A stretch of DNA of 64,000 bases, taken from TPA_inf: Saccharomyces (Eukaryota). The stretch spans positions 544,001 to 608,000 of the forward strand of contig BK006947.3 in NCBI GenBank assembly GCA_000146045.2. The letters are read 5' to 3'. The notes beneath the pieces were generated by a model. It was not told where the DNA came from. It saw only the letters and a list, made by a program, of their open reading frames with translations, and made no database searches. The first letter of the stretch is position 1. Each line of letters begins with the position of its first letter. A program made the position numbers and the translations under genes. This document shows positions 1-60,268 of this stretch, in pieces.

Positions 1-978
1 TCTGGTAACTTAGTGACCAATTGTTCGTGGAATCATTTTTGGTTGAATGAAGGTTGGACCGTTTACTTAGAAAGAAGAATTATTGGTGCCATTCATGGCG
101 AACCAACTAGACATTTCAGTGCTCTGATTGGTTGGAGCGATTTGCAGAATTCTATTGATTCTATGAAAGATCCTGAAAGATTTTCCACTTTGGTACAAAA
201 CTTGAACGATAACACTGACCCTGACGATGCCTTTTCCACTGTTCCGTACGAAAAGGGGTTCAACTTACTATTTCACTTGGAAACTATTTTGGGTGGTAAG
301 GCTGAATTTGATCCATTTATTAGACACTATTTCAAGAAGTTTGCCAAAAAATCATTGGATACTTTCCAGTTTTTGGATACTTTGTATGAGTTCTATCCCG
401 AAAAGAAAGAAATTTTGGATTCCGTTGACTGGGAAACTTGGCTGTATAAACCAGGTATGCCACCAAGGCCTCATTTTATTACGGCTTTGGCTGATAATGT
501 TTATCAATTGGCTGACAAGTGGGTCGAAATGGCTCAACATTTGAAAACCACAGAGGATTTCCGGTCTGAATTTAACGCTATTGACATTAAGGATTTTAAT
601 TCAAATCAATTGGTTTTGTTCTTGGAAACTTTGACACAAAATGGCCATTCCAACAAGAAACCAAAAGATTTTGACTGGGCCAAGTTTCCCGTGGCATCTA
701 GGGCACTGTTAGATATCTATCAAGATAACATTGTTAAATCACAGAACGCGGAAGTTGTTTTCAAGATGTTCAAATTTCAGATCTTTGCCAAGCTGCAAGA
801 AGAATATAAGCATTTGGCCGATTGGTTGGGAACTGTAGGTAGAATGAAGTTTGTCCGTCCCGGTTACAGACTATTAAACTCTGTAGACCGTCGATTGGCA
901 CTTGCAACTTTCGACAAATTCAAGGACACGTATCATCCAATCTGTAAAGCTCTTGTGAAACAAGATTTAGGTCTTTGA
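1..978 (+). CDS. LAP2: 3' part of the leukotriene A4 hydrolase-like aminopeptidase. It is truncated at the 5' end by the window edge, and the stop codon TGA is at 976-978.
   Basis: The open frame runs from position 1 and its translation matches the C-terminal region of the yeast LTA4 hydrolase homolog. The ORF track starts at a GTG at position 13 only because the true ATG lies upstream of the window. Confidence 0.85.
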   Translation, partial: SGNLVTNCSWNHFWLNEGWTVYLERRIIGAIHGEPTRHFSALIGWSDLQNSIDSMKDPERFSTLVQNLNDNTDPDDAFSTVPYEKGFNLLFHLETILGGKAEFDPFIRHYFKKFAKKSLDTFQFLDTLYEFYPEKKEILDSVDWETWLYKPGMPPRPHFITALADNVYQLADKWVEMAQHLKTTEDFRSEFNAIDIKDFNSNQLVLFLETLTQNGHSNKKPKDFDWAKFPVASRALLDIYQDNIVKSQNAEVVFKMFKFQIFAKLQEEYKHLADWLGTVGRMKFVRPGYRLLNSVDRRLALATFDKFKDTYHPICKALVKQDLGL

Positions 979-1267: not shown

Positions 1268-1877
1268 ATGAATCAGTTAGGAGCTTTAGCCGTAAGTTCT
1301 AAATTGTAAACACATTTGCATCATTGAAAAACTATACTAACGCGTTAACCTTTTTTCTATATTTCTATAGCAAGTTTCACGTTTCACTCAAAACTTCTCC
1401 ATGGAAAATATTAAGAGCGAGTTCCAATCCTTGCAATCTAAATTAGCAACCCTTCGCACCCCGCAAGAATTTTTCAATTTCAAGAAAATTTCCAAACCTC
1501 AAAACTTTGGGGAAGTTCAATCCAGAGTGGCGTATAACCTGAAGTACTTTTCCAGTAACTATGGTTTGATTATTGGTTGTTTGAGCATTTACACATTATT
1601 AACAAACTTGTTGCTACTCTTTGTTATTGTTCTAGTCGTAGCTGGTATTGTTGGTATAAACAAACTAAAGGGTGAGGAGCTCGTAACTCCATTTGGTTCT
1701 TTCAAGACCAACCAACTATACACCGGACTGGTTTGTGTTGCTGTGCCAATAGGTTTCTTAGCTTCGCCAATCTCAACTTTGCTATGGTTGATCGGTGCTT
1801 CTGCCGTCAGCGTTTTCGGACATGCATCATTGATGGAAAAACCCATCGAAACTGTATTTGATGAAGAAACTGTTTGA
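1268..1877 (+). CDS. YIP3: PRA1-family membrane protein, intron-containing. Exon 1 is 1268-1291 (MNQLGALA), the intron is 1292-1370, and exon 2 is 1371-1877.
   Basis: The ATG at 1268 is followed by a GTAAGT 5' splice site at 1292. The TACTAAC branch point is at 1335-1341 and the TATAG 3' splice site ends at 1370. Exon 2 continues in frame into the track ORF 1401-1877. Hydrophobic segments are consistent with the Yip3/PRA1 family. Confidence 0.85.
1292..1370 (+). other. Spliceosomal intron of YIP3, 79 nt, with GTAAGT, TACTAAC and YAG signals.
   Basis: Canonical yeast splice signals are seen directly in the sequence. Confidence 0.85.
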
Positions 1878-2404
1878 ACACTCCTACAAGTGTTGGGAAA
1901 AGGAGTCATTCTTTTCTATTGTGTATTTTACTCTTCTTCAATATTTAGTTAATTCTTGTCTTTTATTCTCTTTCTCCGTCAACATTAGTATTTAATTGTA
2001 TACAGACACCATTCATAATTGCAGTTAGCTTCTCTGTTCTTTCTCATTCCTAGGATTTACAATGCAGTCTTACCTTATTTGTTTATGTTTTTTTCGTTTA
2101 TCAAGCGTGCAATCAATTACTGAAGATTCACGTGCCAAAACGTAAAAATAATAATAACATAACCCGAGAGAGGCAAGATTAGAATCAATTCATCTTTTCA
2201 AACAAATGGTTATATCGACTAAGCGAAGTGATTAGATGGTGTACGTCGCAGATATTCAACAGTGACGAATTATATGCGATTGTAAGATTGATTGGCAAAT
2301 CGTATTCCATTACTACTATTAACAACTGATGGCATCTAGAAGGTAAAAAGGGTCAACGTAGATGAGGTAGAGTTTGAGCTTAGGGCCCTGCCGAGTTTTC
2401 ATTA

Positions 2405-2737
2405 GAAGACCTCTACTACACTTCAAAATGAAATACCCCTGCATCACCAGATTCATCAACCTAAACGTACAAGACGTATGAAACACGTATGAAACAGTTG
2501 TTGCGAAAAAAACAAGATTAAGTATTTTCAAAGCCCCGGTTGCCTTGATGAACCTAAACGTATAAATAGTTGAGCAATCAGTTTAGCTCCGAAGATCTAT
2601 GCTTCCACCCTTTAGTCAGATTTAGATCCTATATAGATTATATGGGATAAGTAACATTCCGTCAATCAAGCTGCTCTTCTGACAGGTATTAATATTGTTA
2701 AGACGGCTAGTATTGACTAACTTCATGACACAACCAC
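2405..2737 (+). repeat. Diverged sigma-like solo LTR (older copy) immediately abutting the intact sigma element.
   Basis: Blocks of similarity to the adjacent sigma occur in the same order, for example caaaatga.ata, ataaatag.tgagcaat.agtttag.tccga, gcttccacc.cttagt, and gataagtaacattccgt.aat. The right end, catgacacaacc-ac, resembles the sigma terminus, and the element is followed by the same ACCAC flank. Confidence 0.5.
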
Positions 2738-3093: not shown

Positions 3094-3196
3094 GGGCGTG
3101 TGGTCTAGTGGTATGATTCTCGCTTTGGGCGACTTCCTGCCTAAACAGGAAGACAAAGCATGCGAGAGGCCCTGGGTTCAATTCCCAGCTCGCCCC
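3094..3196 (+). tRNA. tP(UGG)N1: tRNA-Pro(UGG) with a 31-nt intron at 3130-3160. The exons are 3094-3129 and 3161-3196.
   Basis: GGGCGTGTGGTCTAGTGGTATGATTCTCGCTTTGGG ... TGCGAGAGGCCCTGGGTTCAATTCCCAGCTCGCCCC folds as a cloverleaf with anticodon UGG. A GGTTCAATTCC B-box is present. An identical second copy sits at 24115-24217. Confidence 0.9.
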
Positions 3197-16692: not shown

Positions 16693-16765
16693 TGCTTCCA
16701 ATCGGATTTGAACCGATGATCTCCACATTACTAGTGTGGCGCCTTACCAACTTGGCCATAGAAGC
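16693..16765 (-). tRNA. tT(AGU)N1: tRNA-Thr(AGU).
   Basis: The reverse complement reads GCTTCTATGGCCAAGTTGGTAAGGCGCCACACTAGTAATGTGGAGATCATCGGTTCAAATCCGATTGGAAGCA. It has anticodon AGU and a GGTTCAAATCC B-box. Confidence 0.9.
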
Positions 16766-18386: not shown

Positions 18387-21300
18387 CTAATGAATCCATT
18401 TGTTAGTTAATAGTTTAAATGTTTTTATCGGAAGAGGTTTTGTCATCACATCAGCAATGTTCTTCTTGGTCTCGATGTAGTATACGTATAAATTATTACC
18501 TGATACTTCATCTCTAAGTCTCATTGCCTTTGTGCCAAAAAATCTGTTTCTAAATTTCTCTTCATTTGTAGACTTAATTATACTGATCGTTGATCTACTA
18601 TCAGTAAGTAAGCCTTTAATAATTGGTTTCTTGTTAAGTTCTTGCACAAGGTGACTGAGGTTATTCAATAGCGGAATAGCTTCACTGACTGCGTGTATTT
18701 CTGCTTCTGTAGTTGAAGTGCATGTTAACGAAGCCTTTGTCGACTTTCCTCCAATCACTTTTCCGTTGAGTAGGAAAATGTTACCAATTTGTGACTTGTA
18801 ATATGGTTGGTTACCATATGAAGCATCGCTTATTGCGACTAGTTTATTATCTGGCTTGGTAGGTTTGTTTTTGTGCCATATTAATTGTTTATCTCTAGTG
18901 TCCCACATGAATTGTATTAACTCATATGTCATGTCTAAAACTTGCCTAGAGGGGAATAGTATATGTTGAGCAAGTGTGTTGATGTAGTATAGTAAGTCAA
19001 ATCTAAATTTATATCCAACATATGAAGCTAGACCAATCAACTTTTGCATTTCATGTACTTTCTCTTTGTATTCATCTTCATCTATTTCTAGTTCATCCTG
19101 GTCTATATAATGACCTGGTTGACCTGGAGCTCTAAGTTTCTTTCCTTTTGGGTTCAAAGGTACGTTTAGTTTGGGTAATTTTTCTGTCAAGGATTTTTCC
19201 ATACCTAATTTCATGTACTTGCTTCTTTGATATTTGATCTCTAATCCAAGTATGTCGTACTGAATGTCGTTATCACTTTCACCCAGATTTATTATCTTTG
19301 TATCGTATTGTTTCTTGAGTGTTGTTATGATTTTCTTATTTGCATTTAAGTCTTTGCTGAATAATATCATATCATCAACGAATAAGCAAATTGTTACTTG
19401 ACTATTTTTAAATACGCATGACCATCCGCGAACTTCTTGCATGTCGCAACAATTTATTAAATATGATTTAATGGTTTCATACCAGTTTGCACCACTTTGT
19501 TTCAAACCATAGAGTGATTTTCTCAAACGTAGTAATTTATCATTCAAACCTAAATGTGGTGGAGGTCTTATGTATAATTCTTCTTTGATATCAGCATATA
19601 AGTAAGCAGAGGATATGTCCAGCTGTGTGATATAATAGTCGTTGTCTAATGCGATTGACAGTGACGTCATCAGTGCATAGTGATGTACGGTATTGGATTG
19701 CATATCAGAATCATATGTATCGGGGTGTTGAATGTCGCCTCTTGCAACAAATCTAGCTTTGTGTGTACCATCACGTTTCTTGTTAAATATAAACATTGAG
19801 TTTATTACTTTTTTAGGATCTATGTCATTTCTATCATAATATTTGTTTGTATCCCAAGTGTTCATTTTCAATAGTTGGCTAATTTCTTTATGATAAGCTT
19901 CAACATATCTGTCTTTTTCTTTGTTGTCTTTATTATAAGTAATTGCTTCATCATATCTTAAGGTCGTTCGAACTGGTTTGATCGATTTCACTCCTTTTAT
20001 TGCTGCAATTAAATTTATGCGTTTCTTCGATCTTGGTGGTTCCAGACTTCTCATATTCTTATTATTCCATGTGTCTCGGGATACCTCAATTTCAGTTTCA
20101 TTATCTTCTAATGATCTTTTCTTACTTTTGGTAGTAGTCAGAACATTAGAATCATCCATACCACCCAAACTGGAATTAGTCTGACGAGAGTGTATGTGTG
20201 GAATATCTTTTGAAACATCAGAAGTGTCCGTAGGAGATTGATGGGTTAAGTCAGGAAGTGGGAGGTCGTCAAGAATAGAATCAGCCGTAACATTTTTTGA
20301 GGATTTGTCAGGCATTATATTAGGAGTCGCATGGTCAGAAGATCGATATTCTGGCGGATCCGTATCAATGGAGGGTGTATTATCACATACAGCCTTTGTT
20401 TCTATGGAGATGATGGGAGTAGTGGATTCACTGTTGGACGAACGGTCATCTATTGAGGGCGTACTATTTGTAGTCCTGTATTTGATATTTGTATCACTAT
20501 TTCGTTGAATATATGGTTCCTCCGTACCACCCAAACGTGTAGTTTTGATGTTTTCAAGTCCATAATTAACTCTATCCTGTGAGGTCAAATCAATCATATC
20601 ATTGGGACTACCAGGTCGCTTTTGGTTTCGTGCAGTGAAGGTAGACGAGTGTCTAGGTGAAGTAGTATCTGATTCAACGGTACCAACCATTTCGGTACTC
20701 TCTTTATTAATGATATGGGGTGTACGAGATCGTATAGTAGATGGAAGAATATTGTATTCAGATATGTCGGCATCAACTTCTTTTGGTGCACGTACTTTTT
20801 GGACTGGTTCCTTGTCTAATTGTAAAGGGTTTATTGATTGGGACGAGAAGTCGTTCACTAGAGGATCAGAGTTTATTTCAATCTCCGATTGATAGTCATG
20901 ATCAGATTCTGTATTTTGATCATATGACTGCTCCGTTTCATTTTGTTCAATAAAAGATTGGTTATGGGCTGTTAAACGATTGAGATCATCATCAAAAGTG
21001 AGTGTATCGTAGTCGAACTGGTCCAATTTCGTTTGCTTGTTTTGTAATATAACGTAATTGGTAGTATCTACTGTCTTTTTTAATGATGGAAGATAGATAA
21101 TATAGCCATAAGAGTTTCGTGACGGATGTAAGGCGTAACCTGGAATGCCACGAGGATGTATTTTCGAGTCGGGATTATGGTTGTTAACTATAACCGGTTG
21201 ACCGAAAGGTAGTATAGTAGTAATGTCCAGTCCAGCTAAACCTGCATGTTGTCTTGCGGATTTATCGTTTTTTGGTGAGACTAATGAATTTCTGATTATA

Positions 21301-22427
21301 GTAGAAAATTCGACTGCTGAGAACCATAGATGATTTGGTAGACCACTGCAATGAAGCAGTGTGCGACAATCGTTTAATAAAGTACGATTTAATCGTTCAG
21401 CGACACCGTGTGCTCTAGAATCTGCCGTGGTTGTATAGCATGCAGTAATACCTCTGTTCGTAAAGAACTTATGAAGAGTTTTGTTAGTGTACTCGGAGCC
21501 ACGATCCATCTGGATAACTAGAACGCGAGCATTGAATTGGTTCTTAATAAATGCTAATATCGATGTAAAAACATTGAGGATAGATTCTTCACGACGGTCG
21601 TGTAATGGGTACACCCATTGGAATCTGGTTTTCTCATCTGTAAACGATATAAAGTAAGAAGGTGCACTTTTCGGTAAGTGATGTACAGGACCAAATATAT
21701 CGGTATGCAAGTACTGAAAAGGCTCATATGATTCTTGGTACTTTAGTCGTGATCCTTTGACATGTCTATGTTTCGTGCTTTTGCCGATTAGACAGTCAGG
21801 ACATTGATATGTGCTAGCGTTAGACCATTCAATATCCGATTCCTTCAAATATGTAACTGCATTCTTCTTAAGAGACTTCTGAATACTTCGGAAGTTAGCA
21901 TGTCCAAGCATTCGATGTATTAACGGATATGGATATTTATTTACGCTTTTGCTTTTGTTGACGTTGTTTATTGTTAGCTTTGAAATGTGCGAAGGAATTA
22001 GGTATTTTTTAGATAACCAGTAAAAGTCTCCATGTTTGACTATGGGAGCTAGTACTGTACCATCCGATCTTTCTAAAGTGTTTCTGGTAAAGCAGGCAGT
22101 AATATTTTGATTAGCCAGCTCACTCAAACTTAATAGATCATAGGCTATGTTTGGTGTGTGTAGTGCTTTTATTGATGTTTTGGTGCCGTTCTGAAAGTTG
22201 AAGTGAAGATTACCAATGGCATTTATAGGAATGTCTTGTTTTTGAGCATCGACTATGTTTATTTCAGAATTGGGTGTTGCATGGTGTAAATAATGGGCTG
22301 ATCTGACAAGCGTTTGCGAAGCTCCTGAATCAATAAGAAGGTGATCAGGTAGTTCGTCATTCGAGTCTACTGTGTGTGTTGGCTTAGATTCTTTCTGTTG
22401 CTGGCCTAAGACTAAGTTCGTTGTCAT
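18387..22427 (-). CDS. TYB: Ty2 TYB (pol: protease, integrase, reverse transcriptase, RNase H). It is normally expressed only as a Gag-Pol fusion through +1 ribosomal frameshifting.
   Basis: 1346-aa continuous frame with the DSGAS protease motif, an integrase HHCC zinc-binding motif/DDE region, and the YVDDM reverse-transcriptase motif. It ends just before the PPT. Confidence 0.8.
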
Positions 22428-40319: not shown

Positions 40320-41291
40320 TTAAATTGCAGATGCTGGTCTAAGATACAAAGTATGTAGCAGAAACTTTATCCATTGTTCGTGGTACTTGTCCCAATGATC
40401 GTATAATGTAATTTGCTCTTGAATCGTATCCATAACCTCCTCAAGATCTACAAGAGATTCTGCCATAAAACGATTAAAAGCTATTTGAACAGGAGAACTA
40501 GAATTTTTAGGATCTCTGATGGCTTCAGAAGCCGCAGATGCTAACGATGATCCTTTGGTTGGTTTCCCATGAATGGAAATCGTAATGAATAAACATGCAA
40601 CAGCGATAATATGAGGAGGGTAAAGCAAATGAACATCATTTATATAACTGTCGTTGATTAAGGACCAACAGTTTTGTAGATCATCTGACGATAGTGTTAT
40701 TTGAAATGGCGGTTGCTTTAAGACTTGAACAATTTGCTTTAAGGATTGATAAGGGTGGTGGACAATTAAGTAACTTTCCAATTCTTCTAGTAAGTAGAAC
40801 TCAAACTCAGTAACTTTAGTAGGGTCAGGAGGAATAAATTCGGGCCATAAGGTACGGGCTTCACTTACCAAAGTTCTGATATATTGCGGGCATTCTTCAA
40901 CTTTGCATGCTAAATATACACACGTAGTAACCAGCATATATAGGTTTATTTCTCTAACTGAAGCCTTTATTAAAAACCTTGATAGATAAATATGTGCTGT
41001 AGCCAGTGCATACTGTCTTATATTTAGTCTCCTTCCAAGCTTCATTATCAGGAAATAGCAGTAGATCCTTAGATTATAATCTTTATCATAGTGTAAGTCT
41101 CGGTGAGTTATTGGTATATTCTTTGTGATGGATTGTTCGATGCCGTTTTGCTTCGAATCCATTACAATATTCAAACCTTGAGGAAACAGCTGGCACTCCA
41201 ATAGCCATAACTTCTGCCTCTCTTTAGCCAATGATGCCTTGGTATATTGCCAATGATGCCTTTGTGTAGATGTCCAGAAGCTCCCCGACAT
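40320..41291 (-). CDS. SSN8: Cyclin C of the Mediator CDK8 module.
   Basis: The cyclin-box protein starts at MSGSFWTSTQRHHWQYTK... The track ORF has 13 extra upstream codons. Confidence 0.85.
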   Translation of the reverse strand: MSGSFWTSTQRHHWQYTKASLAKERQKLWLLECQLFPQGLNIVMDSKQNGIEQSITKNIPITHRDLHYDKDYNLRIYCYFLIMKLGRRLNIRQYALATAHIYLSRFLIKASVREINLYMLVTTCVYLACKVEECPQYIRTLVSEARTLWPEFIPPDPTKVTEFEFYLLEELESYLIVHHPYQSLKQIVQVLKQPPFQITLSSDDLQNCWSLINDSYINDVHLLYPPHIIAVACLFITISIHGKPTKGSSLASAASEAIRDPKNSSSPVQIAFNRFMAESLVDLEEVMDTIQEQITLYDHWDKYHEQWIKFLLHTLYLRPASAI

Positions 41292-41586
41292 GTCTAACTT
41301 TTGAGATTCAGATGCCTTATCGCTCTTCAACTAAAGTTTGAGAGGGCATTTTTTGTTCGAACAATATGAGTGCTAACAAGGTTGCTACCACATCAATGAA
41401 CTCTACTCCTGTATGAACCCTAATTTTCCTTCATGAAAAATGAATTTTCGATGTTTTTCCGTGGATTTTATATTTTTTCAAATATATAAAGGAGTAAGAA
41501 AATAACTTTGTTTATCCTATGTTGCGGTAAAGAACTAAATAGTGGTCTTCACCTGTTTTCTAATTTCTTCTCGTTTAAAGTTCTTC

Positions 41587-41926
41587 AATCCATGACCAAA
41601 GAATCGTCACAAATCGAAGCTTACAAAATGGAGTAAAATTTTTTTTACTCAGTAATATGCTTTGGGTTGAAAGTCTCCCACCAATTCGTATGCGGAAAAC
41701 GTAATGAGATTTAAAAATTTTAAATTGTTTAAATCAACTCATTAAGGAGGATGCCCTTGGGTATTCTGCTTCTTGACCTGGTACCTCTATTGCAGGGTAC
41801 TGGTGTTTTCTTCGGTACTGGATTCCGTTTGTATGGAATCTAAACCATAGTTATGACGATTGCTCTTTCCCGTGCTGGATCGAGTAACCCAATGGAGCTT
41901 ACTATTCTTGGTCCATGGATTCACCC
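41587..41926 (+). ncRNA. NME1: RNA component of RNase MRP, about 340 nt.
   Basis: The sequence AATCCATGACCAAAGAATCGTCACAAATCGAAGCTTACAAAATGGAG...GGATGCCCTTGGGTATTCTGC...GGTCCATGGATTCACCC is the yeast MRP RNA as I remember it. It has P1-P4 pseudoknot-forming ends and a TATA-like ATATATAAAGG about 90 bp upstream. No ORF is present. Confidence 0.75.
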
Positions 41927-42087
41927 CTTTTTATTTTTTTAACAGTTTGTTGTTTACACTACTTTTTAGCAGTGTAAAACTTTTGCATAGTTAAATATGC
42001 CGAACTGATCTAATAAAAAGTCTGAATAACTCAGATGAGTTATTTATTGGTAAACTTGTGTAAGAAGAAGATGGAATAGTGAATAAT

Positions 42088-42180
42088 TCATCAAATGATG
42101 AAATACCAATGCAACAGAGTCAAGCTCTGAGTTTCAAAAAGAAACATGGACGAGATTGCTTTTTTATTACTGACCATGAT
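42088..42180 (+). ncRNA. snR66: C/D-box snoRNA candidate, probably snR66. It has a C box AUGAUGA at 42095-42101, a D' box CUGA at 42127-42130, and a D box CUGA at 42170-42173. A terminal stem forms between GAAUAAUUCAU and AUGAUUAUUC.
   Basis: Boxes and the terminal stem are seen in the sequence. The location about 160 nt downstream of NME1 matches my recollection of the SNR66 locus. Confidence 0.5.
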
Positions 42181-42601
42181 TATTCATTACTTACCATTGT
42201 TCCTCATTCTATATAATTGATTGGGCACCACGTAAATTCTTGAGCCTTTTCGGTAGTATTCAATCGCAATATGGGGTAGTTTACGGAAGTGCTGTAAATG
42301 ATGTCTAAAATGAACAACTATGCGTCCTTATTGTGACAATGAATTCCCTTCTTAAATCTCTATAGAGGTCGAATAGATGAATACTCAACACAAAACACTA
42401 TAAAATAAAAAAAAATACAAAAGTGTTTATATTTTTGCTGTGCGTGCTAGCTCATAGCACCCTTACTTGTACGCTATCAGACGATAGAATTAAAGAGACA
42501 CTTCGTCTGAATCCACTTATACTCTTTGTTTTAAAAGGTACTGCACCTTCTATGACCTTGATTTGCGTAACTTTAAATCCATATGACTAAGTATCTTCCA
42601 A

Positions 42602-42820
42602 TCAGCTGTTAAATTGACTGATGGCCATCAAAATACATGCTAAACTAACATATGGACTGGCCCTTTCACCAACACGTGCCATTTTCCAGAAGGCCCCCAA
42701 AACCTCATGATTTTTGTAACGATCTAGGAGAGACGGCCACTGCCCATGAACATAAGAACATGAACAAATCAGTAACAATATCACTTGCAGAAGAGAACGA
42801 AAATTAAATAATGCAGACAT
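42602..42820 (-). CDS. KSH1: Small conserved secretory-pathway membrane protein (Kish family), 72 aa.
   Basis: [72 protein letters not shown]. The track ORF has 11 extra upstream codons. Confidence 0.8.
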
Positions 42821-43106: not shown

Positions 43107-43847
43107 TTACTTCCTGATAAGCTGAAACAAGTGGGTTCTTTCCTTAAGATAATGTTCAAATTTACTAAAATCTGTAATTTCAAGAACGTCAAAATTTCTT
43201 TTAATCTTGTTGAAAAAATGTTTATCAGCTTTTCTTCTCTTCTTGTAAGCCATCAAGATTACAGGTGGGTTTATGCAGTGAGTGAGATCAAGTAGTGTTT
43301 TTTCTAGTAATGGAAAAGCTTCCTCGAGATACACACAATCAGCTGCCAAAACTAGATCAACGTTATTTGCTTGCATAGCACCTTCTTGAGGTGAGAAATC
43401 TGCCGACAGCGGCTCACCCCACCAAAGTTCCCTCGCAAGAACTTCATACTGAACTTCGTCCAGTTCTATATTTCTTTTCAATAGTGGTATCAACTTGTCA
43501 ATGTCCGTAACATATACTTTAGTGCCATCGTGGAATGTGTTTTTTTCCAACAACCCCACGCACAATCCAACTAAACCTGTACCACTACCCAATTCTAAGA
43601 CTTTTTTAAATTGTTTCGTACCATTGACCGTCTTACTTAGCAGATGGTCAACTGATTTCTCGAGTATGTACTCGCACAACAGTTCGCCAGCGATCCAGAC
43701 TTTACCGCCACAACCACTTTCACCGCCATCTTCACAAATTTTCAATGCAGGCAATAATTTTCCACCGAAGGAAAGGTCTGTTTGACCGAGATGCTCCTTT
43801 GGCCTAGGAACAACTAGATCTCCAAACCCACCAAATATACTCTCCAT
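43107..43847 (-). CDS. EFM6: Class I SAM-dependent lysine methyltransferase (family 16 / FAM86-like).
   Basis: The LELGSGTGLVGL motif I and a DxxY-type motif are present. An alternative start two codons upstream at 43853 is possible. Confidence 0.8.
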   Translation of the reverse strand: MESIFGGFGDLVVPRPKEHLGQTDLSFGGKLLPALKICEDGGESGCGGKVWIAGELLCEYILEKSVDHLLSKTVNGTKQFKKVLELGSGTGLVGLCVGLLEKNTFHDGTKVYVTDIDKLIPLLKRNIELDEVQYEVLARELWWGEPLSADFSPQEGAMQANNVDLVLAADCVYLEEAFPLLEKTLLDLTHCINPPVILMAYKKRRKADKHFFNKIKRNFDVLEITDFSKFEHYLKERTHLFQLIRK

Positions 43848-44262
43848 ACTCAATACCTCACTAGTCGCGTTTTTATAACGTTCTAGGGAAAATTATGGGC
43901 CATTTTTTTACATAGAGCCTGCTCATCATAACTTTTGAATTATTTAAATACGAAGAATTACTTTCAGTGTTTGGGTGTGAGGGACTTTTCGTTTGGTCAA
44001 GCCAAAAAAGCTTAAGAGAAAAGAAAAATCTCTTCTGGTTTTACTTGACTAGGTTTCCAAATTATAATATCCGTATTATTAACGTGACACTCAGTATTCT
44101 CCATTCGTTTACGGGAACGTTGATATGTAAACATATGCAGATCCTCGTATTTTAGCAACGACAGGGAGAAACAAGAAATGAGATAGGATGAAAAAAAATA
44201 AAAGTTAGATATTTCTATTTAATTAGAATTCCGCGTAATAAATAATGACACGCTATTATAGT

Positions 44263-53539: not shown

Positions 53540-54375
53540 GTTGATTTATCTGGTTGCTTAAAATACCTAATTATGCAGAGTAATATTTCTTTCTCAGGGA
53601 AAGAAGTTGGCAAAGAAAATATAGGACCACGAAGGAGAAACAATTAGCACTTTTAGGATGTTTCCTTGGCCTATTCTTATTTTATTATCATGAAAAAATT
53701 ATTTTTTCTGCACGTTGATTTACCAAAAGAATAGTTAAATCAACAAGGCTTAGAATTCGGACCCTATTGCTGCGAGGCGAAAGAGGGCTATGCATAAACA
53801 TGAGTTCGAAATAACCCGTAAATCATAAACAAACCTAAATAAGCCGTGGTTAGCGGCCTTTTTTCGTTATTACCCCAAGATAAATGTGCAGCTCTTGTAA
53901 GCTCAGCATACATACTTGTTGAGTGTGTCAGGAACTGTTTTCAGGAACCCAAGGTTGAAGTGTTAAAATTAAGAAGCTGGATTGTGCTCTCCATATTAAA
54001 TGAAGCGTAGTTACAAATCGTTGGCATGGAGAAGTTTGCCTCGTGTTTACATTTACAATACTAAATAGTTGTACTGAGGTTTGACGAATATAAGGGAGTA
54101 AGGAGCGCATCGTGTTTCTCTCTTCAAGTTAATACTATGGAGACCTTGGCCATTTGAAAGTACTATAAAAAGCCACTGAAGTAGTATCATTCCCGGCTGC
54201 TTCCAAGTTGGCGAGCCGCAAGACTCAATGCCGCTGTATATTTTTACTGGGAAACAGGTTTGAGTGTTCACAGATTGAAATTTTTATTAAGACCTATTAA
54301 GTGAAATACTGACAGATACTATGTACATGTAGGGGTAAGTTGGTGTATGGTGTGTACAGCCAGGAGCAGCTCCAT

Positions 54376-55230
54376 CTATAGCAAGCTTGAAGAGTACATA
54401 TGGACGCTTAGTAACGTCTGGTTAGGCCGGTCTCTCGATAAAACCGCGAACCCGTTTCTTTCCCCCTGCCAGTCCTCTCTGTTAAGAGTTGAAGCCAGTT
54501 TAGTGATGCCGCCCAGTACTTCTATCGTATAATCTCCAAAAAGTGTGTATAGTTCGCTTACAGAGGGCATTTTCGATGAAATATCCGCGAACCCCAAGGC
54601 GCTCACTGATCCAGCATCTAAAATCGAAATACTCCCATGGTTGTGGTGGGATAGCGAGTCCAGAGTGTACTGGTCAAAGCATATCTCTGTAGACAAATCG
54701 TGGAATGGCACTATCGAGTTTTCTCCGACGGTCATGAGTAGACATTTCTGCCGGTTGCTTCCTTCGAACGGGTACACTAGTTTCTGAGTGATATCCATTT
54801 TAGTAAAAGCTTTCCCGACACCCTTTCCGAAGATTCTGCCGACCATTTCCCCAAATCCCAGTCCTACCATTTTTTCCATATCAGCATCGCTATTCAGCTT
54901 ATTTTCCTGCAGATACTTCAGAAGATAGCCCCAAGCGGTGAGTAGTAGGACAATAAAGTTCAGCGCACAAGAAGTTATTTTCAAAGGACCCTTCCACTTA
55001 AATGGTGCGCAGTTGAAAAGAAACTGCATGGTTTGAATTATGTTAGTAGCAGTATTCAAAGCGGTTTCCGCTTTGTTTTGTGGTTGCGGTGCGGCAGTCA
55101 CAGTTGTGATTTCGGTGATTGTTGACGTAGTAAATACAGTTGTTACATCGACCGAGTGACAAAGTACGGTTAGGGAGGTAACCAACGCAAGGAAAAGGAC
55201 GGTTGTCCTTGATTCTCTGGAGTAAAGCAT
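54376..55230 (-). CDS. Paralog of the 28999-29853 ORF, a signal-peptide-bearing protein of unknown function.
   Basis: Near-identical 284/288-aa product, for example F-to-S at HDLFTEICF/HDLSTEICF. The position corresponds to YNL019C. Confidence 0.7.
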   Translation of the reverse strand: MLYSRESRTTVLFLALVTSLTVLCHSVDVTTVFTTSTITEITTVTAAPQPQNKAETALNTATNIIQTMQFLFNCAPFKWKGPLKITSCALNFIVLLLTAWGYLLKYLQENKLNSDADMEKMVGLGFGEMVGRIFGKGVGKAFTKMDITQKLVYPFEGSNRQKCLLMTVGENSIVPFHDLSTEICFDQYTLDSLSHHNHGSISILDAGSVSALGFADISSKMPSVSELYTLFGDYTIEVLGGITKLASTLNREDWQGERNGFAVLSRDRPNQTLLSVHMYSSSLL

Positions 55231-55935
55231 AATCTCGCGCACGCTCTTGCTATTGACAGCCTCGTTGTATCAACTTGTGTTTAGGAAAGGAGGCAGAATA
55301 AAGATTAAAAATGGAAGAAAAGACTCAATGGTTCCAGCGAAACAAAGATGTTTGAAAAAAAAAATAATTCAGAAACGAGTCTCTTGTCAGGAAAGCAGTG
55401 TCAGGAAAACAGTGTCTGTTCTATAGTTTGTGTTGTGTCCTTCAAGCACTTTTGGTGTTAAAAAACCTTGCTAAAGTTTTGTACAGGTTTATACCGTTGT
55501 GCAAAAACTGCTGCTAGGATAACTGAACAGTTGTTTCTGTGGCAGATGTTGTGAATAGGCGCCTTTATTTTAAGGGTCCAGTGATCCGCGATGTGAATAA
55601 ATACGCGCGCCTCTCTCGAAGGAACCTTCTGGGGCTGCTTCTGTCGATAAGAAAGCTTGGCAAAGGCCTTACTTGGCATTTAAGTAAAGCCTTTGCTTTA
55701 CTGCTTCTTTCCCGCCTTTTTGGTGCATTGGGTTAATTGATGAATATGCGTAAAATTTAAATCAGACTATGAAAACATATATAACAACTATTACAAGAGA
55801 GGTGGTAGTCTACTTGAAGAGGCGCGCCAGAAGAAAACGGTGGTAAGTACGAAGTTATGTGTAGACTAACTTGCTTGTTAAAAAGTATTTGGTCAGCCGT
55901 GCCAAACAGTTCGAACTATCAGAACTTCTGACGGT

Positions 55936-57774
55936 TCACTGATGTACAAAAGTTGAGAGCCATTTTCGTAACCAGCTTTTTGTCCCACGCTCAGAAGGAT
56001 GCATTGGTACGGTCACTTCGATATTCCTTCTTTGTGAGTGGAGCCAGAGCTTTTTATTAGTTTTTAGTTCAGTTGCTGTGCGAGACTCACGAACAAGTAG
56101 CAGCCGGCATGGTTTAGATGGTTCTGGCACGGTAAGCTGAGGAGCGCTATTATTATTGCGGGTACTACAGTCATTAGAAGATGGAATGGATTCCTTGCAT
56201 ATGTCTATCAGTGCCTGAAACGCCCTCTCAATGAGGGAGGTGTCAGGACTCAAAATTAAGGATTGTTCGGCGGGATGCGGTAAGCCTTCGTATACTAGGT
56301 TGTTGGACGGAAAAATCTGATACGGCTTGATCTGAATGTTAGGATCGACCTTACTGTCTAAAGTATCGAGAGTGATGTTTCCTTTTCGGTTTAAAGACTT
56401 CTTCTCGCCGACATCGAGAGAAAAATGAATGTGATCAAGAACCAGATCTATTTCTCTTTGTGTGTTTTTCCAGGGACAAGAAATGGAGTAGGGCTCAATC
56501 CTCTGGAAACCTTCGTATTTGTATTGGTATGAATAAAAACGGCACTCTGCTTCCTCCATAAGTTGGTCGTAGCTGGGCATTGTATCGAAGTTGAAGGGTC
56601 TCTTCCAGAATGGAATACTTTTATTTGAAGGGTTGTAGTACCTTCTGGGCTCAGATTGTTCGTCTAAAAGCAGGTATTGAACAGCTATCATCTTGCGCTC
56701 AAATTTAAATTCGAGGGAATCGTAGTCAATGTTCTTTGTACTTCTCAGAAAGAGTGGACAGTATTTTCCCATTTTGCTTTCAAACCAGTTCTGTGGCCTG
56801 TCAAGGTACTGTTGCATGTATGAAGGAACTACAGTAGTCAACGTGTGGTTAGACTGGGAAAATTCCGCTGTGGACACGACGCTGCAGCTTATATTTTGAT
56901 TGCAGGGAGCAGGAGCGCAGGCATCTTGTTTAGATTTTCGGCTTGGATAATGTTTGTGGTGATCAGTGGAATTTGTTGGGCAGTAAATTTCAGTTGGAAT
57001 GATAGATTCATTCGTCTCTTTTGTTCTGGAGTCCTTGGTGCGGCGGAAATCAAAGCAAGTCACTTCTGCGTTAAGCGATGCGAAATTGCCGTCTGGAAAT
57101 GACGATATGTGTGGAGAATGAGGAGGATTCCATGACGAATAAACTGATGAGGATGTGCTAACAGATGAGGTTAGTGAGGGTACCGATTCGTTGTTTTCTG
57201 ATGCAGAGTCTGTTGTGGGAGATGTGGTAGCGTTATTTCTTTGCACAAGAGAAGATGGGAGCATAGCACGGTTGTGGGAGGAGGAAGAAAACATCACGTT
57301 GCAAGTATCGTTTACGGAGTGGGATAAGAGGTAGGAGGTTGTCATAGCGGTGCTTTCTTCCTGATGCATGGCAGAAGAAGTTGGCAGTAATTCGTTTATT
57401 ATGGTGACATTGTCGTGATTAGAAAGGACTGTCTCTTTTACCATTGCCTCGGGTATGTTTTTTGGCGCCTGCCTTGAACTTACTCCAGAACAAGCCTCAG
57501 CAGAAGAATGACCGGAATGATTCCTCTTATACACGTTCCAGAGTGGAGCATTCTTGACATCATAAAAAAAGTTGCTGACAGGATCTTTGGACTGGTTGAC
57601 GTTAAGTGGTTCCGTAGCTGGTCTGATGTTTTCTTGTACGGTATCACTGACGGCTGAGAAACCTTCAGAGGAACCGTTTTCGGGAACAGACTTGGAGGAT
57701 TGCAAATTAAGCCATTGAAAGTCTAGCCCAACCTTGTTGCAGAAGGCCTTGAACTCCTGGAAAGATGTAGACAT
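55936..57774 (-). CDS. Paralog of the 26477-28315 ORF, a Ser/Thr-rich protein of unknown function.
   Basis: 612/618-aa product with scattered substitutions relative to the left-arm copy (S-to-N, T-to-A, G-to-R and others). The position corresponds to YNL018C. Confidence 0.75.
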   Translation of the reverse strand: MSTSFQEFKAFCNKVGLDFQWLNLQSSKSVPENGSSEGFSAVSDTVQENIRPATEPLNVNQSKDPVSNFFYDVKNAPLWNVYKRNHSGHSSAEACSGVSSRQAPKNIPEAMVKETVLSNHDNVTIINELLPTSSAMHQEESTAMTTSYLLSHSVNDTCNVMFSSSSHNRAMLPSSLVQRNNATTSPTTDSASENNESVPSLTSSVSTSSSVYSSWNPPHSPHISSFPDGNFASLNAEVTCFDFRRTKDSRTKETNESIIPTEIYCPTNSTDHHKHYPSRKSKQDACAPAPCNQNISCSVVSTAEFSQSNHTLTTVVPSYMQQYLDRPQNWFESKMGKYCPLFLRSTKNIDYDSLEFKFERKMIAVQYLLLDEQSEPRRYYNPSNKSIPFWKRPFNFDTMPSYDQLMEEAECRFYSYQYKYEGFQRIEPYSISCPWKNTQREIDLVLDHIHFSLDVGEKKSLNRKGNITLDTLDSKVDPNIQIKPYQIFPSNNLVYEGLPHPAEQSLILSPDTSLIERAFQALIDICKESIPSSNDCSTRNNNSAPQLTVPEPSKPCRLLLVRESRTATELKTNKKLWLHSQRRNIEVTVPMHPSERGTKSWLRKWLSTFVHQ

Positions 57775-58311
57775 TATGTGGGCGAAAAACAAAATTAGAC
57801 CAACGCTTTAGCAAATTTTTTCAACCTCAAATTGATATTTGAAGATTAGATCGGATGGTTTTTTTTCCTGTGGTGTAGGCCAAGCTTAAACAAGGTTTTA
57901 AGTGAAAGTGGAAATAATTGTGATAAACATGCGGAAAGAGTGCCAGCCTTAAATAATTCCGCATTGTTGCTATGTCGTTTTGTTTTTGTTTTTGTTTTCG
58001 TCTTATTGGTATTTGTTCATTTTACGACCACAAAGGATCCAGGGCTTCTACTTGCACAGGGAGGGTTGCTTGGTTAATACAATGCAAAGGTCAGAGATAT
58101 TAAGATTTGTGAAGGGTGCATTCAATGAGTTTTTCCTTTAATGTGCCCTAGAAAGGAAGTAGTACGAACATTTCTCAGTCGGAGTTTGCCGGAAATTCGA
58201 ATGACAGTGTAAGTTGATTTTTGTGGCACAGAGATAATGAGCGGTGGTTCTGGCACACATTTGTGACGTTGGTTTGATAGTGTGGAGGGAGGGTGAAAAA
58301 CAGATAACAAT

Positions 58312-58385
58312 GGTCTCTTGGCCCAGTTGGTTAAGGCACCGTGCTAATAACGCGGGGATCAGCGGTTCGATCCCGCTAGAGACCA
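58312..58385 (+). tRNA. tI(AAU)N2: tRNA-Ile(AAU), second copy, in the right arm of the inverted repeat.
   Basis: Identical to the 74-nt sequence of the 25867-25940 copy, in opposite orientation. Confidence 0.9.
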
Positions 58386-58906
58386 TTCTTTTTTTACATT
58401 TCTCGCAATGTGATTTATTTTGCTTACCCTTCCCACTGCCGTTACAAGGGAGGTGAACGAAGAGGCTTGTTAGCATAAGGTTTACGCGTTGCGGTTGTAA
58501 GCACAATGTTCTTACTAAACCTCTGAAGATTAATTATCCTAACGTATACTAATTAATTCAAAGAGAATATTTACTCGTTCTCTTTTCATCATTTTGTAAC
58601 ATAATTCTTTACGTATTTTCACTTCGTACTTTTTTCAACTTTTTTTGCCTTCGCTTCTTTTTTGTTGTAATTTTTCAATTTTTTTTTTTCATCGTTGGCC
58701 GTCTTTCCTTGTCCTTCATTTTCCTCTCGTAATAATCATTCAACTACGGTAAAGCATGCCTTTCCTTTTTTCTACTCTGCAGTTATTTTCATAATATCTA
58801 CTGTTTCCATTTCGTGCTTTAAGTTAGAGTTTAATCTTCCCTTCTATCATCTTAATAGCAGGTTCATAATAAGAAGATTACCACATCTACTCTTTGTTCG
58901 ATTCCA

Positions 58907-60268
58907 ATGTCTGAAAATAACGAAGAACAACATCAACAACAACAACAACAGCAACCTGTTGCCGTCGAAACTCCCTCGGCAGTTGAAGCTCCAGCATCAG
59001 CAGATCCTTCTTCTGAACAGAGCGTCGCTGTCGAAGGCAATTCTGAACAAGCTGAAGACAATCAGGGTGAAAATGATCCTTCCGTAGTTCCTGCTAATGC
59101 TATTACCGGTGGTAGGGAAACTTCCGATAGAGTTTTATATGTTGGTAACCTAGACAAAGCTATCACCGAAGACATTTTAAAGCAATATTTCCAAGTTGGC
59201 GGACCAATTGCTAACATCAAAATCATGATCGATAAGAATAATAAGAACGTCAATTACGCTTTTGTTGAATACCATCAATCTCACGATGCCAATATTGCCT
59301 TACAAACATTGAACGGCAAACAAATTGAAAACAACATTGTCAAAATCAACTGGGCCTTCCAATCCCAACAGAGTTCCTCCGATGATACATTTAACTTGTT
59401 TGTCGGTGATTTGAATGTTAATGTTGATGACGAAACTTTAAGGAATGCCTTCAAAGACTTCCCATCCTACTTGAGTGGTCATGTTATGTGGGACATGCAA
59501 ACTGGTAGTTCAAGAGGTTACGGTTTTGTTTCCTTTACTTCTCAAGATGATGCACAAAATGCCATGGACAGCATGCAAGGTCAAGATTTGAATGGTAGAC
59601 CGCTAAGAATCAACTGGGCTGCTAAGCGTGATAACAATAACAATAATAATTATCAACAGCGTCGTAACTACGGTAACAACAACCGTGGTGGTTTCCGTCA
59701 ATATAACAGTAACAACAATAACAACATGAATATGGGGATGAATATGAACATGAATATGAATATGAACAACAGCAGGGGCATGCCACCAAGTTCAATGGGA
59801 ATGCCAATTGGCGCCATGCCATTACCATCTCAAGGCCAACCCCAACAATCCCAGACCATTGGTTTACCTCCTCAAGTAAATCCTCAAGCTGTTGACCACA
59901 TCATTAGAAGTGCCCCACCAAGAGTTACTACTGCCTATATCGGTAATATTCCGCACTTTGCCACTGAAGCTGATTTAATTCCGTTGTTCCAGAACTTCGG
60001 TTTTATTTTAGATTTCAAGCACTATCCAGAAAAGGGCTGTTGCTTCATAAAGTATGACACTCATGAACAGGCCGCTGTTTGTATTGTTGCCTTGGCAAAC
60101 TTCCCATTTCAAGGCAGAAACTTGAGAACCGGTTGGGGTAAGGAAAGATCAAATTTTATGCCACAGCAGCAGCAACAGGGCGGTCAGCCACTTATAATGA
60201 ATGACCAACAACAACCGGTTATGTCTGAGCAACAACAGCAACAGCAGCAACAGCAGCAACAACAATAA
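58907..60268 (+). CDS. PUB1: Poly(A)/poly(U)-binding protein (TIA-1 homolog) with three RRMs plus a Q/N/M-rich prion-like region.
   Basis: 453-aa ORF. RNP1/RNP2 motifs are present (LYVGNL, YAFVEY, LFVGDL, GYGFVSF, AYIGNI, CCFIKY). A low-complexity NNNNNYQQRRNYGNNNRGG...NMNMGMNMNMNMNMNN segment and a C-terminal polyQ are also present. Confidence 0.9.
   Translation: MSENNEEQHQQQQQQQPVAVETPSAVEAPASADPSSEQSVAVEGNSEQAEDNQGENDPSVVPANAITGGRETSDRVLYVGNLDKAITEDILKQYFQVGGPIANIKIMIDKNNKNVNYAFVEYHQSHDANIALQTLNGKQIENNIVKINWAFQSQQSSSDDTFNLFVGDLNVNVDDETLRNAFKDFPSYLSGHVMWDMQTGSSRGYGFVSFTSQDDAQNAMDSMQGQDLNGRPLRINWAAKRDNNNNNNYQQRRNYGNNNRGGFRQYNSNNNNNMNMGMNMNMNMNMNNSRGMPPSSMGMPIGAMPLPSQGQPQQSQTIGLPPQVNPQAVDHIIRSAPPRVTTAYIGNIPHFATEADLIPLFQNFGFILDFKHYPEKGCCFIKYDTHEQAAVCIVALANFPFQGRNLRTGWGKERSNFMPQQQQQGGQPLIMNDQQQPVMSEQQQQQQQQQQQQ
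59725..59768 (+). repeat. (ATGAAY)n hexanucleotide repeat encoding the (NM)n tract of PUB1.
   Basis: aacatgaatatggggatgaatatgaacatgaatatgaatatgaac. Confidence 0.8.

Follow-up and report, generated by a model that had tools for sequence, protein, structure and literature searches.

The RNase MRP RNA gene NME1 in a 64-kb stretch of Saccharomyces cerevisiae chromosome XIV

Identity and extent of the RNA gene

Between the protein-coding genes SSN8 and KSH1 lies a region in which the open reading frames point to no gene, and the question is whether it harbours a gene for a non-coding RNA. An earlier note, made from the sequence alone, had placed the RNase MRP RNA gene NME1 there, at 41483-41926 of the whole stretch of DNA that was analysed (64 kb, hereafter the window), and had named a covariance-model search as the check. 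The entire 64-kb window was scanned with Rfam 15 at gathering thresholds, and RF00030 (RNase MRP) matched at 41589-41918 (+), scoring 74.1 bits (E 1.1e-18) where the gathering threshold is 50. The match spans model positions 1-266 of 266 without truncation and bears out the proposed gene. We conclude, with a probability of about 0.98, that NME1 occupies 41587-41926 (+), on S. cerevisiae chromosome XIV between SSN8 and SNR66/KSH1; this single-copy gene encodes the RNA subunit (340 nt) of nuclear RNase MRP (Table 1).

A related gene with which this one could be confused is that for RNase P RNA (RPR1-like), as the RNase P and MRP RNAs have CR-I, CR-IV, CR-V, P1-P4 and the P3 module in common (PMC10966300). 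In Rfam both families belong to one clan, CL00002, of which only the top-scoring member is reported per site. RNase_MRP, above its gathering score, is the sole clan member kept at 41589-41918, and therefore MRP outscores RNase P at this site. In addition, the loop of P8 is GAAAA, the purine-rich GARAR that is unique to MRP, CR-IV has 6 nt and not 8, and the chromosomal neighbours are those of NME1. That the gene encodes an RNase P RNA is thus very improbable.

The neighbours were assigned by their own matches (Table 1). The gene order SSN8 - NME1 - SNR66 - KSH1 - EFM6 has been tabulated for chromosome XIV, and the order around NME1 in the window agrees with this table (PMC9731477). Since SSN8, snR66, KSH1 and EFM6 flank NME1, the locus is that of S. 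cerevisiae chromosome XIV. NME1 lies on the strand opposite to SSN8 and the two are divergent, with 295 bp between the SSN8 ATG (41291, -) and the NME1 5' end. The description of the locus as SSN8-KSH1 intergenic holds for the protein-coding genes, but snR66 sits between NME1 and KSH1 and is the immediate downstream neighbour.

The earlier note had described a 340-nt sequence without an open reading frame, and 41587-41926 is indeed exactly 340 nt long, with a G+C content of 39%. In no frame does a stretch without stops exceed 49 codons, and only ORFs of 42-45 aa with TTG/GTG starts overlap the region. Each of the strings quoted for the RNA was found once in the 64-kb window: the 5' start AATCCATGACC...GAAGC corresponds to AATCCATGACCAAAGAATCGTCACAAATCGAAGC at 41587-41620, the 3' end GGTCCATGGATTCACCC lies at 41910-41926 and the mid-region GGATGCCCTTGGGTATTCTGC at 41749-41769. 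Of the proposed span 41483-41926 the end at 41926 stands, but 41483 belongs to a promoter element and the RNA starts at 41587. The RNA folds with -103.1 kcal/mol, compared to -76.4 ± 5.5 for dinucleotide shuffles (z = -4.87), and none of the 100 shuffles was as stable.

The published length of NME1 RNA is 340 nt (PMC3737539); one paper gives 341 nt and not 340. In the MRP RNAs CR-IV has 6 nt, vs 8 in RNase P, and its fourth nucleotide is U266 in Nme1 (PMC13184271). Numbered from 41587, nt 266 is a U and the fourth residue of CR-IV. As the published U266 and the 340-nt length both fit, the register with nt 1 at 41587 is checked. Conservation across species runs from nt 2 to nt 337 and, together with P1, confines the termini to about 41587-41589 and 41920-41926. 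A full-text literature search for primers matching the proposed NME1 5' and 3' ends found none, and the exact termini therefore rest on the published length and the residue numbering, within about 1-3 nt.

Two candidates were discarded along the way. A scan for bacterial-type promoters and terminators is unsuited to a yeast gene, and the lone 'terminator' that it gave at 41778-41803 is a domain-2 hairpin within the RNA. The 'NME1' of PMC10498592 is an unrelated human metastasis gene.

Table 1. Position of NME1, its structural parts, its flanking elements and the neighbouring genes in the window (RNA numbering with nt 1 = 41587).
Feature	Position	RNA nt	Strand	Remarks
SSN8 (YNL025C)	40320-41291		-	323/323 identical to PDB 7kpv_B, S. 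cerevisiae Mediator cyclin C
Tbf1-type motif AACCCTAA (ARCCCTAA), tentative promoter element	41416-41423		+	about -170, one copy
Putative TATA box TATATAAA	41483-41490		+	-104 to -97 from RNA 5' end; one of four TATATAAA in the window
NME1, RNase MRP RNA gene	41587-41926		+	RF00030 match, exact strings, 340-nt span
P1 5' strand	41588-41599	2-13	+	12 standard pairs with 41908-41920
P2 5' strand AAUCGUC	41602-41608	16-22	+	7 Watson-Crick pairs with GACGAUU
P3 domain (helix, internal loop, helix)	41614-41665		+	basal pairs; distal stem formed in every species
P3 basal helix, 7 bp	41614-41620/41659-41665	28-34/73-79	+	standard pairs, conserved
P3 distal helix GAGUAAAA/UUUUACUC	41631-41638/41643-41650	45-52/57-64	+	
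Internal T8 run, distal P3 loop and 3' strand	41639-41646		+	sole run of at least 5 T within the gene
CR-I GAAAGUCUCC	41669-41678	83-92	+	matches Rfam consensus GAAAGUCCCC
P4 5' strand	41671-41673 and 41675-41678	85-87, 89-92	+	U at 41674 (U88) bulged
P8 hairpin CGUAUGCG-GAAAA-CGUA	41687-41703	101-117	+	4-bp stem
GARAR pentaloop GAAAA	41695-41699	109-113	+	P8 loop, MRP-specific
Variable domain 2, specificity-domain replacement	41704-41841	118-255	+	includes GGATGCCCTTGGGTATTCTGC hairpin 41749-41769
CR-IV AGUUAU, 6 nt	41849-41854	263-268	+	directly 5' of P2 3' strand; invariant
P2 3' strand GACGAUU	41855-41861	269-275	+	pairs with 41602-41608
P19 hairpin	41862-41885	276-299	+	folds in all four species
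CR-V UAACCCAAUGGAGCUUAC	41885-41902	299-316	+	matches Rfam consensus AACccAAUGGGGCUUA; invariant in four species
P4 3' strand	41894-41900	308-314	+	within CR-V
P1 3' strand	41908-41920	322-334	+	C at 41913 (C327) bulged
Y-shaped RNA element	41943-42007		+	begins 17 nt past NME1 3' end; conserved
Y-element outer helix CAGUUUG/CGAACUG	41943-41949/42001-42007		+	
Y-element inner hairpin	41953-41978		+	variable
Y-element hairpin GCAUA-N6-UAUGC	41985-42000		+	conserved
AGNN-capped hairpin, Rnt1p-type	42023-42046		+	10-bp stem, loop AGAU; 37 nt upstream of snR66
snR66, C/D-box snoRNA gene	42083-42183		+	RF00477, 114.6 bits
KSH1, 72-aa DUF1242/Kish protein	42602-42820		-	family match
EFM6-like ORF, Methyltransf_16 lysine methyltransferase	43107-43853		-	family match

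Architecture and conservation of the RNA

The Rfam alignment is confident over P1, P2, P3, CR-I, P8, CR-IV, P19 and CR-V, and all pairs of P1, P2, the base of P3 and P4 are standard. The RNA thus has the complete set of structural elements by which an RNase MRP RNA is defined. The conserved P4 partners mentioned in the earlier note are present: CR-I (GAAAGUC...) pairs with CR-V (...AAUGGNGCUUA) in a long-range pseudoknot of seven Watson-Crick pairs. Domain 2 was aligned poorly, with posterior probabilities of 2-5 and several non-canonical pairs flagged. A weak alignment is expected here, because domain 2 of yeast is atypical and markedly unlike that of other eukaryotes (PMC13184271).

Relatives of the RNA were collected by scanning metagenome contigs with one CR-IV...CR-V pattern, which gave six loci (L001-L006). 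The RNA of L004 is identical to NME1 of the window (340/340) and that of L002 differs by 1 nt, while L003 and L001 belong to different yeasts and are 72-74% identical to it. All four (L001-L004) match RF00030 above threshold with 72-84 bits and carry snR66 downstream of the MRP RNA gene, the gene pair being syntenic. L005 is a chance match with no other MRP motif and no Rfam match at E <= 0.01.

The sixth locus, L006, lies on a yeast contig at about 1417-2433 (+) and holds an MRP RNA homologue of ~1.0 kb with ~800 extra nt in domain 2. At its 5' end P1, P2, P3, CR-I and GGAAAC (GARA) are found, at its 3' end CR-IV, P2, P19, CR-V and P1. The 5' part gives a partial Rfam match of 27 bits, and the full model does not span this RNA.

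The helices of the RNA are kept by paired changes. In P1 two-sided changes from A-U to G-C, C-G to U-A and A-U to G-C are found by RNAalifold in L003/L001, and in L006 P1 is retained from different sequence. P19 shows compensatory changes from C-G to U-A and U-A to G-C (RNAalifold), and P2 one from G-C to A-U in L006 (AAUCAUC/GAUGAUU). The distal P3 stem is built from other sequence in each case, namely GGAGUCC/GGAUUC in L003, GAGUG/CACUC in L001 and a long stem in L006. As this covariation comes from only three or four distinct species, it is qualitative support, and the compensatory changes are fully consistent with a functional structured RNA.

Hardly any change is seen across the relatives in P4, CR-I, CR-IV, CR-V or the GARA(R) loop. 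The core AAGUCUCC that forms the P4 strand is the same in all four species, and the full CR-I string is the same in the window, L003 and L001, as are P8 and its GAAAA loop; L006 has GGAAAC in place of the latter. The P4 pairing strands are unchanged in the four species, and covariation thus speaks neither for nor against P4. Domain 2 shows little sequence identity between the window, L003 and L001, and in all three it consists of a conserved AU-rich hairpin followed by three hairpins. An alignment of five sequences with MAFFT and RNAalifold had shown the distal P3 and domain-2 helices as 'broken'. This is a misalignment, and folding species by species between the invariant anchors keeps the helices.

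The same observations weigh against a decayed, non-functional MRP RNA pseudogene that has kept enough sequence to score. Nothing specific speaks for it except the poor Rfam alignment of domain 2, which is expected from the divergence of the yeast domain noted above. However, the match covers the full model, no core helix is disrupted, the conserved regions do not vary and the TATA box is conserved in position. Moreover, the gene is syntenic together with snR66 in diverged yeasts, and the changes between them are compensatory and not disruptive. We consider decay even less probable than an RNase P identity. Just as hard to credit is that small proteins are encoded and the RNA match is incidental, for the ORFs of 42-45 aa at 41508-41636 (+), 41787-41924 (-) and 41860-41994 (+) exist mechanically, but they have TTG/GTG starts and at most 45 aa and run across the ends of the RNA. 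Between species the region differs by paired compensatory substitutions and by indels of many lengths, as is typical of a structured RNA but not of a reading frame, and an E of 1e-18 across the full model is not incidental.

With the identification as NME1 the function follows from the literature. NME1 RNA is the catalytic subunit of an RNP with ten proteins, of which eight are common to RNase P and Snm1 and Rmp1 are added (PMC3737539). The proteins are Pop1, Pop3-8, Rpp1, Snm1 and Rmp1, and the RNP cleaves pre-rRNA at A3 (PMC3737539, PMC7277114, PMC10966300). RNase MRP is essential and cuts at A3 in ITS1 as well as in the 5' UTR of the CLB2 mRNA (PMC7277114); the A3 cleavage in ITS1 serves 5.8S maturation. 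The CR-I/CR-IV/CR-V pseudoknot around P4 forms an active site that is almost the same as in RNase P, the helices form the coaxial stacks P3-P2-P19 and P4-P1, and P3 recruits Pop6/Pop7/Pop1 (PMC10966300). GARAR is a conserved element found only in MRP and cross-links to the substrate (PMC3737539). The purine pentaloop of P8 docks on P4 (PMC13184271) and, together with Pop1, Pop4 and Rmp1, shapes a pocket for single-stranded substrates (PMC3737539, PMC13184271). By analogy, the RNA encoded in the window, with its ten proteins, would supply the active site via the CR-I/CR-IV/CR-V pseudoknot. Its P3 would recruit Pop6/Pop7/Pop1, and its GARAR loop would dock on P4 and contact the single-stranded substrate.

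NME1 is already known. Its genetics, biochemistry and cryo-EM structure are on record, and the gene itself holds nothing novel. Compared to S. cerevisiae NME1 (YNCN0013W; cryo-EM 7C79 cited in PMC13184271), the RNA of the window has the same length, U266 register, GARAR, P1-P4, P8 and P19. The gene also has the same flanks SSN8, SNR66, KSH1 and EFM6 and the same place within the flip/flop region of chromosome XIV. No difference was detected, the identity being supported indirectly by the L004 contig (340/340) and the 100% identical SSN8 protein. The locus therewith serves as a positive control, an ORF-invisible non-coding gene recognised from raw sequence on which covariance model, covariation and synteny concur.

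Human RMRP shares the catalytic C-domain, with P1-P4, the CR-I/IV/V pseudoknot, the 6-nt CR-IV, the P8 purine pentaloop and the P3 module (PMC13184271). It also shares the cleavage of ITS1, which takes place at site 2 in human and at A3 in yeast (PMC7277114, PMC13184271). It differs in its polymerase, Pol III in place of Pol II (PMC7277114), and in the specificity domain (domain 2), which has a completely different structure (PMC13184271). The nuclear RNase P RNA, RPR1 in yeast, is of common ancestry with a shared catalytic core and eight shared proteins (PMC3737539, PMC10966300). However, in RNase P RNA CR-IV is 8 nt long, the P8 loop is not of the purine type and an S-domain binds tRNA, whereas NME1 has the 6-nt CR-IV, the GARAR loop and domain 2 (PMC3737539, PMC13184271).

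Promoter and the spacer to snR66

We infer that the element at 41483-41490 would act as the TATA box of NME1. L003 has a TATA element at -99 and L001 one at -84. The TATA-like string ATATATAAAGG that the earlier note had named is present upstream of the RNA and occurs once in the 64-kb window, but it covers 41482-41492 (11 nt) and not 41483-41498. The spacing also had to be corrected, as the TATATAAA core lies at a distance of 104 to 97 nt from the RNA start and not of about 90. Further upstream is a Tbf1-type motif, a kind of motif that is linked to snoRNA-type promoters and that may be a promoter element here. The upstream region of L003 has three RCCCTAA copies, at -205, -165 and -152.

A run of Ts such as T8 would terminate RNA polymerase III. 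The internal T8 run would therefore stop Pol III within the gene, which argues for Pol II transcription of NME1. In the literature yeast NME1 is transcribed by Pol II and human RMRP by Pol III (PMC7277114), and NME1 shows a Pol II ChIP signal and Mediator-dependent occupancy (10.1101/352906). As far as the sequence can tell, the TATA placement and the T8 run agree with this published Pol II transcription, and Pol II would transcribe NME1 from a divergent promoter that contains a TATA box and is shared with SSN8.

Downstream, NME1 and snR66 are separated by a spacer of 156 nt, in which no canonical TATA box was found. Close to snR66 it contains an AGNN-capped hairpin, and equivalent AGNN hairpins are present in L003 (AGAU) and L001 (AGUU). 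snR66 is a known Rnt1p substrate (PMC4334505), and the hairpin at 42023-42046, judged by its sequence, is consistent with an Rnt1p-type processing signal. Nearer to NME1 the spacer folds into the Y-shaped element of Table 1, in which L001 shows a single compensatory change in each of two helices, the outer helix and the conserved hairpin (three species compared). It is conceivable, though we think it rather unlikely, that NME1 and snR66 are transcribed by Pol II as a single conserved unit or are a closely coupled pair, and that the Y-element helps to specify the 3' end of NME1 and/or the site of entry for 5' processing of snR66. An explicit statement on a dicistronic NME1-snR66 unit, on their co-transcription or on the pathway of NME1 3'-end formation was not found in the literature searched. 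If this were true, the novelty would at most lie in the Y-element and in the coupling of snR66 to NME1, since Rnt1p is already known to process snR66, and a prior description is possible.

The inversion region and other features of the window

Through NME1 the entire window is anchored to S. cerevisiae chromosome XIV, an aid in reading its other features. The window contains the whole 'flip/flop' inversion region of this chromosome described in PMC9731477, at 25866-58386. Its inverted-repeat arms, 26114-29930 and 54299-58137, are about 4 kb each and 98-99% complementary, and each carries a Centroid-family ORF (612/618 aa) and a membrane-protein ORF (284/288 aa). The arms are capped by tRNA-Ile(AAU) genes at 25866-25941 (-) and 58311-58386 (+). 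The invertible segment between the arms is ~24 kb long with NME1 inside, and it has the REF (S288C-like) orientation relative to the ORFs outside. These are an ORF of 389 aa on the left (24522-25691, -) and one of 453 aa on the right (58907-60268, +), which we take to be YNL035C and PUB1, respectively.

Left of this region two overlapping ORFs of 478 and 1346 aa at 18387-23820 (-) resemble Gag and Pol of a Ty1/Ty2-type (copia-like) retrotransposon. They sit between a tRNA-Thr(AGU) gene (16693-16765, -) and the putative YNL035C. In addition, two Rfam tRNA matches of 103 nt each, at 3094-3196 (+) and 24115-24217 (+), both with 48.7 bits, were not called by ARAGORN. The second of these adjoins the Ty element, and the two are probably copies of an intron-containing tRNA gene.
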